64,000 bases of DNA from Patescibacteria group bacterium (GCA_038065455.1 JBBTQX010000002.1:6779-70778), one strand, 5' to 3'. Counted from the first letter of the stretch, positions 30,382 to 39,364 are shown. A program made the numbers and translations. Notes: generated by a model not told the origin, from the sequence alone.

Positions 30382-30750
30382 TTAAAAAATATCAGAGACT
30401 CTAGTCAGTGCAAGCCGATTCATGACTTCATCGTCATAGTTATCCATATGGACACAGATGCAAAGTAAGACGATAACGGCGCCTTTTACTGCGAACCACA
30501 TTCGGGGATACTGATTGGGTCTTAAATTATCATTAGGAACAACGAGTTCTACTTTCCATAAGGTCCAGATATCATTCTGCGTTACCCTGTGTAATTTTGC
30601 CGGGGCTATTATTTGCTTCGGATTCTCCGGATTGAATTGAAATTCGCACAACCTCTTGAATGAATCTAAACCGTCTTTAAGATGACGAAATCGCCGCTCA
30701 AGGGCGGCGATTTCTTTTTCTATGCCGTCATGATACAGAAATTCAATCAT
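30382..30750 (-). CDS. RelE/ParE-superfamily-like toxin candidate
   Basis: 122 aa. LWKVELVV......YPRMWFAVKGAVIVLLCICVHMDNY matches the RelE-type beta core pattern. 4-nt overlap with the upstream antitoxin. Confidence 0.55.
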   Translation of the reverse strand: MIEFLYHDGIEKEIAALERRFRHLKDGLDSFKRLCEFQFNPENPKQIIAPAKLHRVTQNDIWTLWKVELVVPNDNLRPNQYPRMWFAVKGAVIVLLCICVHMDNYDDEVMNRLALTRVSDIF

Positions 30751-31238
30751 AGGTCGCTGAAATCCGTACCGCGATAGAACGCGAGTTCATATGAAATATC
30801 CTCTCCCGGCTTCGTCCCAACATATGGGGCCTCAGCATGGGAAAGTTCGCCAAGCTGTTTTCCATTCAATTGGCCGTATTTTATGGCAACGCGATCAAGC
30901 ATTCTTCTTTCTTCGATATCTAATATTAATTCATCCGGTTCCGCCAAAGAACTGTAAACCTCAATTGGATTATATCCATTTCCCAATTCGACGGCTTTGG
31001 CAAGAAGTATTTTTTTCTCGGACATTTCCGATATAATTTTCTCAAAAGAGACTGGTACTGGCCCCATAGGAAGGGCTTTATATGTATCCCCAGTTATAGG
31101 TTTCTGATTCTTTTCGAAGAAATCAAAATCAGCAAAATAAAGGAGTTTTGCTAGTTTTTTCTTCCCTTGGATTTCACCTCCTAATTTCTTACAGAGATAT
31201 AGTATAACTTGCTGATATTTCTTCTTTTGGAGGGTCAT
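30747..31238 (-). CDS. DUF4065 (Panacea/SocA-like) antitoxin-domain protein
   Basis: 163 aa. KKLAKLLYFADFDFF....PITGDTYKALPMGPVP is characteristic of DUF4065. Confidence 0.7.
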   Translation of the reverse strand: MTLQKKKYQQVILYLCKKLGGEIQGKKKLAKLLYFADFDFFEKNQKPITGDTYKALPMGPVPVSFEKIISEMSEKKILLAKAVELGNGYNPIEVYSSLAEPDELILDIEERRMLDRVAIKYGQLNGKQLGELSHAEAPYVGTKPGEDISYELAFYRGTDFSDL

Positions 31239-32531: not shown

Positions 32532-33278
32532 TTATTTTTCTTTCTTTTTCTTTTCGGGTTTGCCGGAAATCAATTCCGCCGGAACTACTTCGATGGCCAG
32601 AACTTTGTCGAAATGGTCTTTCAAAATATTGCTCGCCTTGTGGAGCGCCTCCGAAGGGCTAATGGAGCCGTCGGTCTCTATTTCCAATTTCAAGCGGTTA
32701 TAATCGGTGCGGTCGCCCACGCGCATATCTTCCGAGTGGAAGGATACCCGGACAACCGGGGAAAAGATGGCATCAAGCACGATCGTGCCGACCGAAAGCC
32801 TCTCCATCCGGCGGGATTCGCTCATCACGTAGCCCAAGCCCTTTTCGACGGTGATTTCCATATCCAAATCGGCGGACTTTTTCGAAAGAGTCGCGAGATG
32901 CAAATCCTTGTTGATTACCCGCACGAGCGTGGAAGATTCGATATCCTCCGCCTTCACTTCCTTCTCGCCTTTCACGTGAAGTTTTAAAGTCTGCGGCTCA
33001 TCGGCGGTAAAATGAAAGCGGACTTTCTTCAGGTTCAACGTGAACTCCACGATATCCTCCACCATGCCGGGCAAAGTCGAAAATTCATGGTCTATATTCT
33101 TAATCTTAATCTGAGTAATAGCCGAACCCGGAAGCGAGGAAAGGAGCGCGCGCCGAAAAGCATTCCCCAAAGTGACGCCATAACCGGTAAAAAGACCTTC
33201 AATGTAAAAAACACCGATATTGTCCTTTTCGGAAATTTTCTTGACCTCGACCGCTTCGCTGATATGTGTATATTTCAT
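32532..33278 (-). CDS. rpoA: DNA-directed RNA polymerase alpha subunit, N-terminal domain only
   Basis: 248 aa. Alpha-NTD blocks (GNAFRRALLSSLPG, DGSISP). Ends in a K-rich tail with no CTD; rplQ follows directly. Confidence 0.85.
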   Translation of the reverse strand: MKYTHISEAVEVKKISEKDNIGVFYIEGLFTGYGVTLGNAFRRALLSSLPGSAITQIKIKNIDHEFSTLPGMVEDIVEFTLNLKKVRFHFTADEPQTLKLHVKGEKEVKAEDIESSTLVRVINKDLHLATLSKKSADLDMEITVEKGLGYVMSESRRMERLSVGTIVLDAIFSPVVRVSFHSEDMRVGDRTDYNRLKLEIETDGSISPSEALHKASNILKDHFDKVLAIEVVPAELISGKPEKKKKEK

Positions 33279-33296: not shown

Positions 33297-33896
33297 TTAA
33301 CGCGAATAGAATTGGCCGACCACGTTTATATCGAAAGGTAGTTGCACTCCGGTAACGGGCGGTTTTGCCACGCACTCGCCTTTCAATTCCTCCGCTTTGA
33401 GCTTAAGCCACTCAGGCGGGGTGTATTGCTTCAACCGGAGTTGAATATCATCGAAAATCTTCGCCGAGCGGGATTCGGGCCGCACAGCAATAATGTCTTT
33501 AACCCTAACATAATAGGAAGGAATTGTCACTTTTCGGCCATTCACGTGGATATGGCCGTGGGAGACGAGCTGGCGGGCGATTCTCGGAGACTTCGCGAAT
33601 CCCAAAAGAAAAACCACGTGGTCGAGGCGGCTTTCGAGCTTGGTCATAATGCCGTCTTTGTCGGAATTCCGGAACATTCTCATCATCTGATGATTATTCA
33701 GCCCGTAAAGAATTTGGATTTTCTGTTTTTCCTGGAGCTGCTTTCCGAATTCGGAAACGGAGTGGCGCGCCTGGCCGTGCTGGCCCGGGCGGTAAGGATG
33801 GCGTACCATCGCGCACTTCGGCGAATTACAGCGGTCTCCCTTGAGGAAGAGTTTGATGCCCAGCGATCTTTCTTTTTTCTCTTTGATTCTTTTCAT
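33297..33896 (-). CDS. rpsD: 30S ribosomal protein S4
   Basis: S4 N-terminal Cys cluster (CNSPKC) and S4 RNA-binding domain. Start trimmed to ATG 33896; the track extension reads into the repeat. Confidence 0.9.
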   Translation of the reverse strand: MKRIKEKKERSLGIKLFLKGDRCNSPKCAMVRHPYRPGQHGQARHSVSEFGKQLQEKQKIQILYGLNNHQMMRMFRNSDKDGIMTKLESRLDHVVFLLGFAKSPRIARQLVSHGHIHVNGRKVTIPSYYVRVKDIIAVRPESRSAKIFDDIQLRLKQYTPPEWLKLKAEELKGECVAKPPVTGVQLPFDINVVGQFYSR

Positions 33897-34024
33897 CCCG
33901 TTTAGAGACAGGATACGCTTAAGAAGCATATCCGTGAAGCATTAGCCGATTCGACTTTATTGGATTCTATTGATTGTTTGATAATCATGTTATTCATAAG
34001 TTTGATGTCTCTAACGGGATTCAT
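33894..34024 (-). mobile_element. family-1 element, ORF-less copy B
   Basis: Gene-strand reading: ATGAATCCCGTTAGAGACA ... TGTCTCTAAACGGG-ATG(rpsD). Confidence 0.75.
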
Positions 34025-34030
34025 ATTTTT

Positions 34031-34175
34031 ACCAGGCAGTGAAAATGCGATTGCAAATCGTGATTGAATCGACGATTCTCGCTATTTCCAATGACCTTTT
34101 ATTTATATTCATATGTTTTGATATTATGATGGTTTTCGATTTGAATTCAATCTAATCGCATTTCTACTGCCTGGT
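34031..34175. repeat. family-2 inverted-repeat element, 145-nt copy
   Basis: accaggcagtgaaaatgcgatt ... aatcgcatttctactgcctggt. The interior is alignable with the copy at 8865-9009. The right end overlaps the rpsK stop codon. Confidence 0.75.
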
Positions 34176-34624
34176 TAAACCCTTCTGGTCTTGGCCGGAC
34201 GCGGTCCGTTGTGCGGAATCGGCGTCACATCCTTGATGGACAGTATATTCAAGCCCTTGCCGGCGAAAGAACGGATGGCGGAATCGCGGCCGCTACCCAC
34301 GCCGCGCACGAAAATCTCCACGGTATTCGGGCCGGTCTTTTCCAATTTCTGGGCAATGGCTTCGGCGACTTTGGAAGACGCGAAAGGAGTCGCCTTCTTG
34401 GGTCCGGAAAATCCCAAAGAGCCAGCGGACATCCATGTAATCACGGCACCCTTATCGTCGGTTACGGTAATAATGGTGTTATTATAGGTGGCTTGAATAT
34501 AGATACGGCCGTTTTCCCAGTGCTGTTTGGATGTGGACGAAGATTGCTTAGCCGGCGCCTTTTCGGCCGTCCCCGCTTCCTTCACCGCTTCGTCTTTGGT
34601 TTTTATGACTTTTTTCTTTCCCAT
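34175..34624 (-). CDS. rpsK: 30S ribosomal protein S11
   Basis: 149 aa. Conserved S11 core with an N-terminal K/A-rich extension. Confidence 0.92.
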   Translation of the reverse strand: MGKKKVIKTKDEAVKEAGTAEKAPAKQSSSTSKQHWENGRIYIQATYNNTIITVTDDKGAVITWMSAGSLGFSGPKKATPFASSKVAEAIAQKLEKTGPNTVEIFVRGVGSGRDSAIRSFAGKGLNILSIKDVTPIPHNGPRPAKTRRV

Positions 34625-34795: not shown

Positions 34796-35179
34796 TTATT
34801 TCAAATCGACTTTCCGCTTGCCACTACCGGCCGTCTTCCTGACGTTGCCGCGCACCGTCCGGGAATTCGTTTTCGTCCGCTGGCCGCGCACCGGAAGCTT
34901 TCGCAAATGACGCACGCCGCGATAGGCTTTAATATCTTTCAAGCGAGCGATGTTCTGTTTTATCACTTGCCGCAACTCTCCCTCAATCTTGTAGTTCTTC
35001 TCTATCATTGATTGGATGCGGTTCACCTCGTCCGGCGCCAAATCCTTCGCTCGTTTTTGGAGGTCGATTTTCGCGCCGACCAAAACCTTGGCGGCCAAGG
35101 TCGGGCCAATGCCGTAGATGTAGCCCAAGGCCACGTAGATTTTTTTGTTATCGGGTATGTTTACTCCGGCGATTCTCAT
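34796..35179 (-). CDS. rpsM: 30S ribosomal protein S13
   Basis: MRIAGVNIPDNKK...YRG.RH...LPVRGQRT.TN.RT pattern. Confidence 0.93.
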   Translation of the reverse strand: MRIAGVNIPDNKKIYVALGYIYGIGPTLAAKVLVGAKIDLQKRAKDLAPDEVNRIQSMIEKNYKIEGELRQVIKQNIARLKDIKAYRGVRHLRKLPVRGQRTKTNSRTVRGNVRKTAGSGKRKVDLK

Positions 35180-35430: not shown

Positions 35431-35658
35431 TTACAATCTTCGCACGATTCGTCCCCGTTTGTCCAGGATGTTCGCCATCTCCACCATAACCCTGTCTCCG
35501 GGGATAACCCGGATGCGGTTGATTTTAAGCTTGCCGGCGGGATGCGCTAAAATGTCTTTTTCTTCCCCGTTTTCAAGTTTGACCTTCACGCGGAAAAGCA
35601 AACCCGGCAGTGCCTCCACCGCTATTCCCTCAATCCTGACTAAAGGCGTATTTTCCAT
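35431..35658 (-). CDS. infA: translation initiation factor IF-1
   Basis: S1-like OB fold: FRVKLENGEE.LAH.AGK...N.IRV.PGD.V. Start set at ATG 35658; the track start is TTG. Confidence 0.88.
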   Translation of the reverse strand: MENTPLVRIEGIAVEALPGLLFRVKVKLENGEEKDILAHPAGKLKINRIRVIPGDRVMVEMANILDKRGRIVRRL

Positions 35659-35673
35659 TAACAAACAGAGTGA

Positions 35674-35702
35674 ATTTTAGACAAATACAGATTTTTTGTC
35701 AA
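35674..35702 (-). promoter_or_regulatory. candidate infA promoter
   Basis: Minus strand: TTGACA, 17 nt, TAAAAT, 15 nt, ATG. Confidence 0.55.
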
Positions 35703-36511: not shown

Positions 36512-39364
36512 TTAATTTTCTCCTTCAACTGTTTTTATTTCTTCCTCCGTTAAGCCGTAGAGCTTATATACCTCCTCATCAATTTTCTTGTCGGTTCTTC
36601 CTATTTCGGATTTCAGTCGTTCCCATTCGTTGGAATTTTCCTCGACGTCGTGAAATTCTTTATTAAGAAGGATTATCTTATCAACATAAGAAATTATTAA
36701 TTTCTGCGATGCCTCGTCTGCAATATAAATTGGTAGATCTAATAGTGGCTCCTTATCTATTTGTAGTTGATCACCCTGTAATTTCCCCTTATTTCTTAAC
36801 CAGAAATGCATGATGTTTGAATTGAGTAATCCAAGAACATATTTGAGATTCACTTTATCCAATTTTAAAATTATAAAAGCTCTTGTAACATAACAAGGAA
36901 AATCAACATATGAAAAGGATGGTTTTATGGTTTTCCTTATTGAAAAAATACAGTGGCCCTCAAAAAATCTTTCTTCGCGTGCCCTATGAAGACCATAGGG
37001 AGCATACACAGAAGTTAAAATTTTAGAAAATTTATCTAGGTGTTTTTTGAGATTAGGAAACTGTTCAATATGTTCCCGGAAATAACTGTCCGCATAAATT
37101 ATACGGAGGCTTGTGTTTTTAATAGATAAGTATCTATTTATTTCTTTTGTTGTATAGTACGGTCTTAAATATTGATCTTCAGGTTTTGTTGGTGAAAGTT
37201 CTTTAATTTCGTCCTCAGATAAAATAAATATGCCATCGCCTTTCTTTATTGTTTTATCTGACAAACCCTGTAGGTGCTTTTCAGTGATAAAATCTTGCAA
37301 AACATCAATGCCATTACCGACATCTTTTTCGTTAATGTGGTAATTCTGTTTTGATTTTATCTTTTCTAGGAGAATGTCTTTATTGCTCTCGGTAAAAATT
37401 AAAAAGTGGCCCAGTAATTTTTCTGGTTTAATCTCAATTTCGGTTTTTTCACCAAAAATTCTGGAAATAAGTTCGTTTTCCGCTATATTCCTATCGGGAA
37501 TCCTTAAATAACTTACCTTGTATTTTTCATCTGGTTTTCCTTTTTTAAAGGTAAAAATCATTGTTTGAATCCCAGCTTGTTCAAAAACCTTATAGTCACC
37601 AAAATCTAGGAAGGATTTTAGTTCGCCATCTTTTAAAATTTTATCTCTAAAAATATCTGCGCCGGCATTGCTTACCCAATTATTCGGAGCGATAAAACTC
37701 AAAATTCCCCCGTCTTTAAGTAAATCTATTGAAATGCACGCAAACATTGTCCAAATATCCATTTTACCCTGATAATATGGGCTATCGTGCAGACCATTAA
37801 AAGCTTCTTTATTCACAAACTCCTTGATATACGGCGGGTTTCCGATAATCACATCAAACCCGCCTTGTTTGAAAACCTCCGGAAATTCCTCTTCCCAGTT
37901 AAACGGCTTCTTATTGCGAAAATTTGCACCAAAATGCTTTTTAAGTTCCGAGTCGGTGCCCGAAATGAGCGAGTTTCCATTCTTTATATTTTTATCGAGC
38001 GATGGCAGCTTCTGCCTTTCATTTAAAGCGCCTACAAGAAGATTTAATCTGGCGATTTCAACCGCTTGCTCGTCCAGATCAACCCCATAGATATTCTCTA
38101 AAAGTATTTGGATTTTTGTGAAAACATTCCCTGGTGCGCCCATTTTCTTGTATTTTTCATTGATAAGTTCCAACGCCTGAACAAGAAACGAACCGGAACC
38201 ACAGGCCGGGTCCAGTACCTTTATCTTCTTCAAATCCTCTATAGTGTTGCACTTTTCCAAAACCGGCCCCAAGGCGTTTTTCACGATATACTCAACGATA
38301 AAATGGGGCGTGTAATAAATCCCCTGCTCCTTGCGCTTCTTAGCATCCTTATGAACTTCTACGCCCTTCTTTGATTGAGAAAGTTTATAGCCGAGATAGT
38401 TTTCATAAACTGTTCCTAGAACATCAGCGGGCATCGCCTTGAAATCATATTCATAATAGCCCGGTTTGCCGTAGAGAATCTGAATAACTTTCTCCGTGGC
38501 GTCGCCATATTCCTCCCATTCTTCAAACGGGTGTTCGGAAAAAAGATTGGAATTGTAGGTTTTATCCAATTCCCTGAATTTATCCACCATGTGCTTGTAA
38601 AGCGGCACCTCGTTTTGGTCTTTGCGATTTTTCCATTCACGAAGCAATGGGATAAGCGTTGGCGGTTCAATTCCTCTATCCTCGGCAACACGTAAAAAGA
38701 TAAGTCTGTCCAAAAGCTTTTGAACGCCTTCATCTAAAAATTGGGGGGCAATTTTAGAATTCCAAGCCTTCAACGATTTAGTAAGAATCTCCCGACATTC
38801 GTTCAGGTCGTTGAATAACAGCGAAGTTACCGGAATTTTCTGGAATTTCTTTCCGAATTTTTCTGCCTCTGTATCGATAAGATTTTTCTCGAATGATTCT
38901 CTTGATAAGAGCGAAAGTTGGTCAAAACATTCAATATATCTATCGTAGGAAATTTCAAAGAGAAGTTTGGCGGCCAATGTCGCTTTCGCATCCTGCGTGT
39001 TGAAAACTTTTATACTCTCAAAGTCGGTAAGCACTGCCCAAGTTACGCCCTTATTCCAAGAATATCTTATTGCTTGTTTGGCATATTCTTCGCGATGCAA
39101 ATCCACCTTAAGTGATTTGGCCTCTAAATAGAATTTCGCCCGGCCATTTAAATAAAATCCGTAATCAACTCTATCCGAGGATGATAAATTTTCTTCCGCT
39201 GAAACCTCATTTTTGTTATGGACATCCCACCCAAGCGCTTCAAAAATCGGCAGAATAAAATCTTTTTTTGTTTCCTCTTCCGTATAACTCTTTATCTTGC
39301 CGGCCGATTTAGCAATTTCATACTTATCAATAAGCAACCTTATCTTCTCTTTCGGGTCATTCAT
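36512..39364 (-). CDS. type IIG (fused endonuclease-N6-adenine methyltransferase-specificity) restriction-modification enzyme, Eco57I/MmeI-like
   Basis: N-terminal PD-(D/E)xK-like D...EAK (VDYGFYL...FYLEAKS), SAM motif VLDPACGSGSFLV, catalytic NPPY (IIGNPPYIKE), C-terminal TRD-like region. 950 aa. Confidence 0.85.
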   Translation of the reverse strand: MNDPKEKIRLLIDKYEIAKSAGKIKSYTEEETKKDFILPIFEALGWDVHNKNEVSAEENLSSSDRVDYGFYLNGRAKFYLEAKSLKVDLHREEYAKQAIRYSWNKGVTWAVLTDFESIKVFNTQDAKATLAAKLLFEISYDRYIECFDQLSLLSRESFEKNLIDTEAEKFGKKFQKIPVTSLLFNDLNECREILTKSLKAWNSKIAPQFLDEGVQKLLDRLIFLRVAEDRGIEPPTLIPLLREWKNRKDQNEVPLYKHMVDKFRELDKTYNSNLFSEHPFEEWEEYGDATEKVIQILYGKPGYYEYDFKAMPADVLGTVYENYLGYKLSQSKKGVEVHKDAKKRKEQGIYYTPHFIVEYIVKNALGPVLEKCNTIEDLKKIKVLDPACGSGSFLVQALELINEKYKKMGAPGNVFTKIQILLENIYGVDLDEQAVEIARLNLLVGALNERQKLPSLDKNIKNGNSLISGTDSELKKHFGANFRNKKPFNWEEEFPEVFKQGGFDVIIGNPPYIKEFVNKEAFNGLHDSPYYQGKMDIWTMFACISIDLLKDGGILSFIAPNNWVSNAGADIFRDKILKDGELKSFLDFGDYKVFEQAGIQTMIFTFKKGKPDEKYKVSYLRIPDRNIAENELISRIFGEKTEIEIKPEKLLGHFLIFTESNKDILLEKIKSKQNYHINEKDVGNGIDVLQDFITEKHLQGLSDKTIKKGDGIFILSEDEIKELSPTKPEDQYLRPYYTTKEINRYLSIKNTSLRIIYADSYFREHIEQFPNLKKHLDKFSKILTSVYAPYGLHRAREERFFEGHCIFSIRKTIKPSFSYVDFPCYVTRAFIILKLDKVNLKYVLGLLNSNIMHFWLRNKGKLQGDQLQIDKEPLLDLPIYIADEASQKLIISYVDKIILLNKEFHDVEENSNEWERLKSEIGRTDKKIDEEVYKLYGLTEEEIKTVEGEN

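Follow-up and report, generated by a model that had tools for sequence, protein, structure and literature searches.

The window (the whole stretch of DNA analyzed, 64,000 nucleotides) carries the gene encoding RNA polymerase's alpha subunit, rpoA, in an operon of ribosomal protein genes on the minus strand. The features of this locus, including those coding for the N-terminal domain (NTD) of alpha and for the short tail found in place of its C-terminal domain (CTD), are as follows.

35674 to 35702, minus strand: sigma-70-type promoter of the infA...rpoA-rplQ operon, TTGACA-17-TAAAAT, an 11/12 match to the consensus
35431 to 35664, minus strand: infA (IF-1), the first gene after the operon promoter, taken from the ORF list; its ortholog in related loci matches PF01176 (eIF-1a)
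34796 to 35179, minus strand: rpsM (S13), PF00416, E = 8e-31
34175 to 34624, minus strand: rpsK (S11), PF00411, E = 3e-37
33297 to 33929, minus strand: rpsD (S4), the upstream neighbor of rpoA, PF00163 and PF01479
32532 to 33278, minus strand: rpoA, CTD-less RNA polymerase alpha, an ORF of 248 codons plus a TAA stop, with an ATG start
32595 to 33278, minus strand: alpha NTD, residues 1 to 228, delimited by AlphaFold2 and by alignment to the NTD of solved alphas
32535 to 32594, minus strand: C-terminal tail, residues 229 to 248, AIEVVPAELISGKPEKKKKEK, a linker remnant predicted to be disordered
32535 to 32564, minus strand: oligo-lysine patch GKPEKKKKEK, with 6 lysines in the last 10 residues
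32178 to 32531, minus strand: rplQ (L17), PF01196, E = 4e-29

The gene order S13-S11-S4-rpoA-L17-L13-S9, found both in the window and in related loci, is that of the usual alpha operon. Directly upstream of the operon promoter, positions 36512 to 39364 (minus strand) encode a 950-residue Eco57I/MmeI-type restriction-modification enzyme, in a stretch with a GC content of 0.35 versus ~0.48; this gene was probably acquired horizontally. Just downstream of rpsI, a gene encoding a SocA/Panacea antitoxin-domain protein of 163 residues overlaps a 122-residue ORF without a family match (30382 to 31238, minus strand). The same gene pair is present on independent contigs (L001 to L003), and the two genes are likely a toxin-antitoxin pair.

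According to the ORF list, the 248-residue alpha has the C terminus ...AELISGKPEKKKKEK, the final residues being ...SGKPEKKKKEK. The TAA codon of rpoA (32532 to 32534) abuts the ATG of rplQ (32531) in the junction TAAATG, thereby leaving no room for a CTD exon or ORF. The Pfam search revealed matches to PF01000 (E = 3e-30) and PF01193 (E = 2e-22) only, and no match to the CTD family PF03118 at E ≤ 1. The NCBIfam alpha-subunit models could be aligned to the protein over model positions 2 to 245 of 320 only. The score of the TIGR02027 equivalog (237.4 bits) exceeded its cut-off of 227.8, while the scores of the longer PRK05182 sub-models fell short of theirs owing to the missing CTD. Comparison with solved structures by phmmer aligned the protein with residues 10 to 246 of a 315-residue alpha (8i23; E = 5e-56). 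Since this alignment ends at residue 246, the window alpha ends inside the interdomain linker; its residues 229 to 248 are aligned with the start of the linker of 315-residue alphas. The AlphaFold2 model, obtained with 54 homologues, had a mean pLDDT of 86.7, with values of 73 to 96 for 10-residue blocks over residues 11 to 230. The NTD fold was confidently predicted, its final helix comprising residues 208 to 228, and pLDDT was <50 at residues 236 to 248.

The protein is therefore a bacterial RpoA by its NTD domains, its TIGR02027 score, and its place between rpsD and rplQ, and is devoid of the helix-hairpin-helix CTD (PF03118) that is borne by a flexible linker. Canonical alphas (329 residues for E. 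coli RpoA and 315 for 8i23) have the same NTD fold and family and the same place in the order rpsM-rpsK-rpsD-rpoA-rplQ. They differ by the presence of a CTD of ~70 to 80 residues, whereas the window protein terminates within its linker, in an oligo-lysine patch. The homologous platform subunits for assembly in archaea (RpoD) and eukaryotes (Rpb3/AC40) have no alpha CTD either. The window protein, however, is clearly bacterial: with the archaeal RpoD model PRK00783 it reached 36.7 bits, for a cut-off of 153. The NTD of alpha dimerizes and is the platform on which beta and beta' are assembled, and it suffices for formation of the core and for basal sigma-dependent transcription. From the conserved NTD and the presence of a sole rpoA in the operon, we infer that the protein would assemble with beta and beta' into an active core containing two copies of alpha. 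NTD-only cores are functional in engineered systems, which provide the presumed mode of action here. In E. coli, alpha(1-235) was reportedly found by Igarashi and Ishihama in 1991 to assemble an active core with basal transcription. In Bacillus subtilis, RNA polymerase containing a truncated alpha (RpoA-del) still binds DNA and elongates (PMC4495994). These proteins, and the RNA polymerase with zero CTDs (bioRxiv 10.64898/2026.07.21.739884), are laboratory constructs with growth or kinetic defects, whereas the window alpha is natural, conserved in its clade, and extended by a basic tail.

The identical 248-residue protein was found on 9 contigs; the four occurrences listed are from four different samples. 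The 120 nearest homologues (70 to 94% identity) were all 237 to 271 residues long, and PF03118 was absent from 120/120; the few that were named belong to Patescibacteria, Paceibacterota, Minisyncoccia, and Jorgensenbacteria. A CTD profile that we built from 103 CTD-containing alphas, obtained by an exhaustive representative search, matched 0/120 of these close homologues. A scan of species-representative genomes with a 9-sequence alignment as the query provided 80 loci (58 to 87% identity), the named genomes being those of Jorgensen-, Wolfe-, Harrison-, and Brennerbacteria, Paceibacter, and Minisyncoccia (GTDB species genomes). One of these loci (L007) is located on an 804,691-bp chromosome (OY970216.1) and encodes a 249-residue alpha. 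The rpoA gene was complete in 78 loci, the remaining two being cut by the locus end, and all 78 stopped 11 to 47 residues past the NTD. A full NTD, a reading frame ending before the CTD, and conservation in 120/120 homologues and 78 complete loci identify a naturally CTD-less alpha. The truncated alpha is genuine and lineage-wide, and the window derives from a Jorgensenbacteria-like organism of the Parcubacteria/Minisyncoccia.

Loss of the CTD is not universal in the Parcubacteria group, as a Giovannonibacteria cluster has a 326-residue alpha with a CTD. The best 150 representatives at 50% identity comprised 102 sequences with a CTD and 48 without, some of the latter being fragments or frameshifted translations. 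In a crude neighbor-joining tree of the NTD, the window clade formed one coherent CTD-less group, and a second CTD-less group and scattered singletons appeared amid CTD-containing sequences, which suggests more than one loss of the CTD. Three alpha-like proteins, P0122 (569 residues), P0123 (526 residues, Candidatus Termititenax), and P0143 (664 residues), contain two NTDs in tandem and one CTD stretch (two in P0143); these could be single-chain alpha dimers or fusions generated by gene calling or assembly.

CTD-less alphas are on record for the endosymbionts Hodgkinia and Tremblaya and for the chloroplast rpoA of Euglena (PMC8321222). The same publication states in one passing sentence that CTD loss "is also present in Parcubacteria," and gives no Parcubacteria data. 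The reference cited for that claim (PMC4508563) contains rpoA only as a core gene in its supplement and makes no statement on RNA polymerase domains. Bare loss of the CTD in Parcubacteria is thus essentially known and thinly recorded. The window alpha resembles the Hodgkinia, Tremblaya, and Euglena types in retention of the NTD and loss of the CTD in reduced genomes. It differs from them in that the loss is clade specific, Giovannonibacteria having kept the CTD, and is accompanied by a conserved basic tail or an AT-hook. We found no report of the clade-level extent of the loss, of its patchy distribution, or of the conserved basic and AT-hook tails.

The alpha CTD recognizes UP elements, contacts upstream DNA independently of sequence, and serves as a docking site for class I activators. 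Because both the use of UP elements and class I activation depend on the CTD, these canonical mechanisms are unavailable to the RNA polymerase of this organism. With the canonical CTD functions absent, promoter recognition would rest on sigma reading full -35 and -10 elements located a few bases upstream of the start codons. The -10 element of the infA promoter ends 15 nucleotides before the infA ATG. A TTGACw/TAnAAT pair was found at the equivalent place in 43 related genomes, the full TTGACw -35 element being conserved across the clade. In the window, -10-like hexamers end 5 to 9 nucleotides before the start codon for 8/28 genes preceded by an intergenic region (for example, upstream of 9717, 28749, and 49385), and Shine-Dalgarno (SD)-like motifs precede 6/65 genes only. 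No AT enrichment was detected upstream of the -35 element at 144 intergenic and 238 intragenic promoter-like sites of the window clade. In the window clade, the DNA upstream of the -35 element had an AT content of 0.49 to 0.60 versus a locus mean of 0.55, and hence nothing pointed to a specific UP-like target. Relatives do not share the A-tract located upstream of the infA promoter of the window. Directly upstream of the TTGAC -35 element of the alpha operon, the window clade often has a G-rich run (GGGG/GGGA), with an AT content of 0.30 to 0.45 at -1 to -4; it was observed upstream of infA in loci L012, L015, L018, L027 to L030, L041, L044, L062, L065, and L077.

These observations bear on three proposals of the preliminary description. 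The first, that many promoters of the window are leaderless and minimal, holds for the leaderless arrangement and fails for minimality, since the operon promoter is TTGACA-17-TAAAAT and TTGACw is conserved. The second, that such promoters fit the loss of the CTD, needs qualification, as nothing ties leaderless mRNAs causally to this loss. The third, a simplified repertoire of promoter recognition and activation, stands to the extent that established knowledge rules out canonical use of UP elements and class I activators. It has to be qualified in that the C terminus is no bare stump: the oligo-lysine patch is conserved, the sister clade having an AT-hook, and this hints at a retained contact of some kind with upstream DNA.

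A basic end was defined by the presence of at least 4 lysine or arginine residues among the last 10. Such an end was found in 115/120 close homologues and in 73/78 species genomes (median, 6) versus 8/107 CTD-containing alphas, the linkers of which are net acidic. Acidic or neutral ends were found in a few orthologues (L050, L067, L072, L083, P0025, P0060, and P0109). The window tail is short, with one KKKK run and no GRP, and thus lacks the R-G-R-P core of an AT-hook; GRP was detected in 3/120 close homologues and 3/78 species loci of the window clade.

A search with protein P0233 identified 120 further CTD-less alphas (241 to 318 residues), the named ones belonging to Falkowbacteria or Patescibacteria.

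Proteins P0233 and P0329 to P0447, loci L097 to L176: second CTD-less clade, Falkowbacteria-like

The tails are longer in this clade (median, 46 residues), and an acidic linker of ~35 to 45 residues precedes a canonical AT-hook, KKRGRPKK (RGRP core), at the end of 106/120 alphas. In an independent metagenome sample (80 loci), RGRP was present in 58/78 complete tails, and the 0.6 Mb around rpoA in the metagenome loci of this clade contained no CTD signal. The DNA upstream of the -35 element has an AT content of 0.74 to 0.83 in the AT-hook clade, but that of the promoter spacers is 0.81 too, making this comparison non-discriminating. Within this clade, the upstream DNA is less AT-rich where the tail lacks GRP (p = 0.03), a contrast due largely to a few closely related-looking acidic-tailed sequences that are not independent cases. 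In one subgroup (L169:5980-6885 and L172:5748-6653), alpha has neither a CTD nor an AT-hook and ends in a Rho_N/HeH-like helix motif, LSKLSREELNALAAEKGI..., which matched PF07498 with E = 3.9e-5 and 24.0 bits, just below the gathering score of 24.9.

The lysine-rich tail may be a minimal substitute for the CTD. The basic end would provide a minimal, flexibly tethered, and non-specific contact with DNA at the place where the CTD is normally tethered, keeping part of the DNA-capture role of the CTD and dropping activator docking. We propose this replacement tentatively, on the basis of sequence conservation. The tail itself is likely to derive from the acidic linker, through a deletion or a frameshift. 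In single-molecule experiments, deletion of one or both tethered CTDs slows the association of RNA polymerase with DNA ~10- or ~55-fold, respectively, and any small tethered DNA binder has been argued to give such an acceleration (bioRxiv 10.64898/2026.07.21.739884). Extended to several large Patescibacteria clades, the proposal would be that a minimal DNA-binding peptide on a flexible linker (oligo-lysine, the AT-hook KKRGRPKK, or HeH/Rho_N-like) has taken the place of the folded CTD, probably on more than one occasion, with tethered DNA capture kept and activator docking lost; this broader form is possible and is put forward with equal reserve.

AT-hook proteins are known at promoters: WhiB7 is bound to sigma, and its AT-hook contacts AT-rich DNA immediately upstream of the -35 element. 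In WhiB7 and in HMGA/CarD, as in the alphas of the sister clade, which carry an RGRP core flanked by lysine or arginine, a short basic peptide that binds the minor groove or the backbone is found by RNA polymerase upstream of the -35 element. The window alpha differs from these factors in having KKKK only, without RGRP, and in that the motif, a putative DNA binder, is fused to alpha itself and not to an accessory factor. Our literature search found no link of AT-hooks or lysine tails to alpha.

The alternative that survives best, and that we nonetheless regard as rather unlikely, is that the tail is functionless. It would be a neutral vestige of the linker; frameshifted or purine-rich linker DNA and the A-rich initiation region of rplQ would account for its many lysines, and alpha would mediate no contact with upstream DNA. 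Purine-rich DNA reads as lysine, glutamate, or arginine in every frame, and some of the basic bias could be a mutational by-product of such DNA. The lysine codons GAAAAGAAAAAGAAAGAAAAATAA directly precede the rplQ ATG in a genome in which SD-like motifs are rare, and the lack of an AT-rich target upstream of the -35 element in the window clade is also in favor of this explanation. A natural example is provided by Giovannonibacteria, in which a 46-nucleotide deletion in the linker-coding DNA led to a 251-residue alpha with a K/R-rich tail. The downstream CTD-coding DNA is 100% identical in the two alleles and out of frame in the deleted one (L177:2130-2460 versus L178:2130-2500), and the deletion allele was recovered from an NCBI assembly and from one or more other read sets. 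An acidic linker can thus be converted in a single step into the basic end of a truncated alpha. Neutrality is, however, difficult to reconcile with the retention of a basic end in 188/198 orthologues spanning 58 to 94% identity. The patch is also kept in 13 genomes in which rplQ starts 67 to 390 nucleotides downstream, indicating that it is not explained by translational coupling to rplQ. No other ORF of the window has a comparably basic C terminus: 5/66 reach 4 lysine or arginine residues in the last 10, and none reaches the 6 of rpoA. Finally, composition bias cannot account for the motif of the sister clade, since the specific sequence KKRGRPKK is conserved in 106/120 of its alphas. The rpoA-rplQ spacers of four loci (L011:10748-11140, L013, L014, and L068) are unusually long, at 198 to 390 nucleotides, and contain GC-rich, possibly structured segments.

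The tail could also be functional without contacting promoter DNA, by binding nascent RNA or an acidic partner protein or by association with the nucleoid or the ribosome. Oligo-lysine tails bind polyanions in general, the present one is predicted to be disordered, and we detected no sequence-specific DNA target, all of which would be compatible with such a role. We consider it improbable, because related CTD-less alphas carry at this position an AT-hook or a HeH/Rho_N-like motif, both of which are established DNA-binding motifs, and because this position is the exact site at which a DNA-binding CTD is normally tethered.

A CTD encoded by a separate gene and acting in trans, or joined to the NTD in some other way, is more improbable still. 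In the six frames of the 64-kb window, which is the extent of the genome covered, the best match to the CTD profile had an E value of 0.73 and was located inside the ribosome recycling factor gene; the weak matches, in this gene and in that of GrpE, were rejected as noise. Nothing was found at E < 1 within up to 10 kb on either side of rpoA in the 80 related genomes (1.3 Mb), nor did the 1.9 Mb surrounding rpoA in a total of 160 related loci, representing both CTD-less clades, give any CTD signal. The absence of a CTD accordingly refers to the window and, in the 80 related genomes, to ~20 kb around rpoA. Public data do contain PF03118 ORFs that stand alone, as a non-exhaustive search with a profile of Patescibacteria-like CTDs identified 17 short ones. 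Three were examined and rejected as candidates: the first was on a chromosome that does not look like one of Patescibacteria, the second on a phage-like contig, and the third in an assembly with a frameshift, and 0/3 came from a CTD-less clade, so that none of the stand-alone CTD ORFs examined occurs in a CTD-less Patescibacteria context. Two alpha-CTD-like ORFs of 83 to 88 residues are P0326 (L091:8001-8267), on a phage-like contig with many small ORFs, an integrase, and a methylase, and P0327 (L088:8001-8252), in the setting of a bacterial chromosome. The latter ORF is conserved on 14 contigs, and UvrD and Mfd are its neighbors in the places shown. An apparent split into 220- and 84-residue proteins in a Paceibacterota cluster was also rejected, as it results from a single in-frame TGA. 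This codon lies between the NTD and the CTD of rpoA (L086:1342-2271; cluster P0124/P0271/P0275), and reading of TGA as sense lengthens several other ORFs of the same contig too, which suggests that this cluster, labeled Paceibacterota, is a UGA-recoded lineage. Moreover, the known function of the CTD relies on its being tethered, a property that a free CTD would not have.

An artifact in one contig (frameshift, misassembly, or misread genetic code), of the kind seen in related data (frameshifted assembly L092 and the TGA-split genes), is practically out of the question, since the identical ORF is present in independent assemblies, the stop is TAA and not TGA, rplQ starts at the next base with no CTD-coding DNA following in any frame, and 120 homologues and 80 species genomes share the architecture.

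What the preliminary description had read from the sequence of rpoA itself was thus confirmed. The 248-residue gene ends in GKPEKKKKEK directly before rplQ, as seen from the ORF list, the TAAATG junction, and the PF01196 match of L17. The CTD is missing and no separate CTD ORF follows, rplQ abutting rpoA and the six-frame search of the window being negative. The concern that a frameshift or an assembly error had truncated the gene was answered by the recovery of the same protein from four samples, by the TAA stop, and by the agreement of 120 homologues and 80 genomes. The comparison with related rpoA genes, which stop shortly after the NTD in 120/120 homologues and 78/78 complete loci, led to the same result. 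Taken as a whole, our explanation, which combines a CTD-less alpha, sigma-based promoter recognition, a proposed contact by the tail, and a probable origin of the tail in the linker, is likely to be the best one.

Alpha has been described as consisting of an NTD and a CTD and as being well conserved across Bacteria (PMC4495994). UP elements and a large share of the known transcription activators converge on the alpha CTD. A whole bacterial radiation without this domain must regulate initiation otherwise, through sigma, the promoter core, and repressors. In annotation, CTD-less alphas fall below the cut-offs of full-length RpoA models, and short rpoA genes of Patescibacteria should not be marked as partial or as pseudogenes. 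If the basic and AT-hook tails do contact DNA, they would be the smallest module able to replace the CTD in its DNA-capture role. They would then provide a direct natural test of the model of acceleration by tethered domains, and a natural experiment separating the two functions of the alpha CTD, DNA capture and activator docking.
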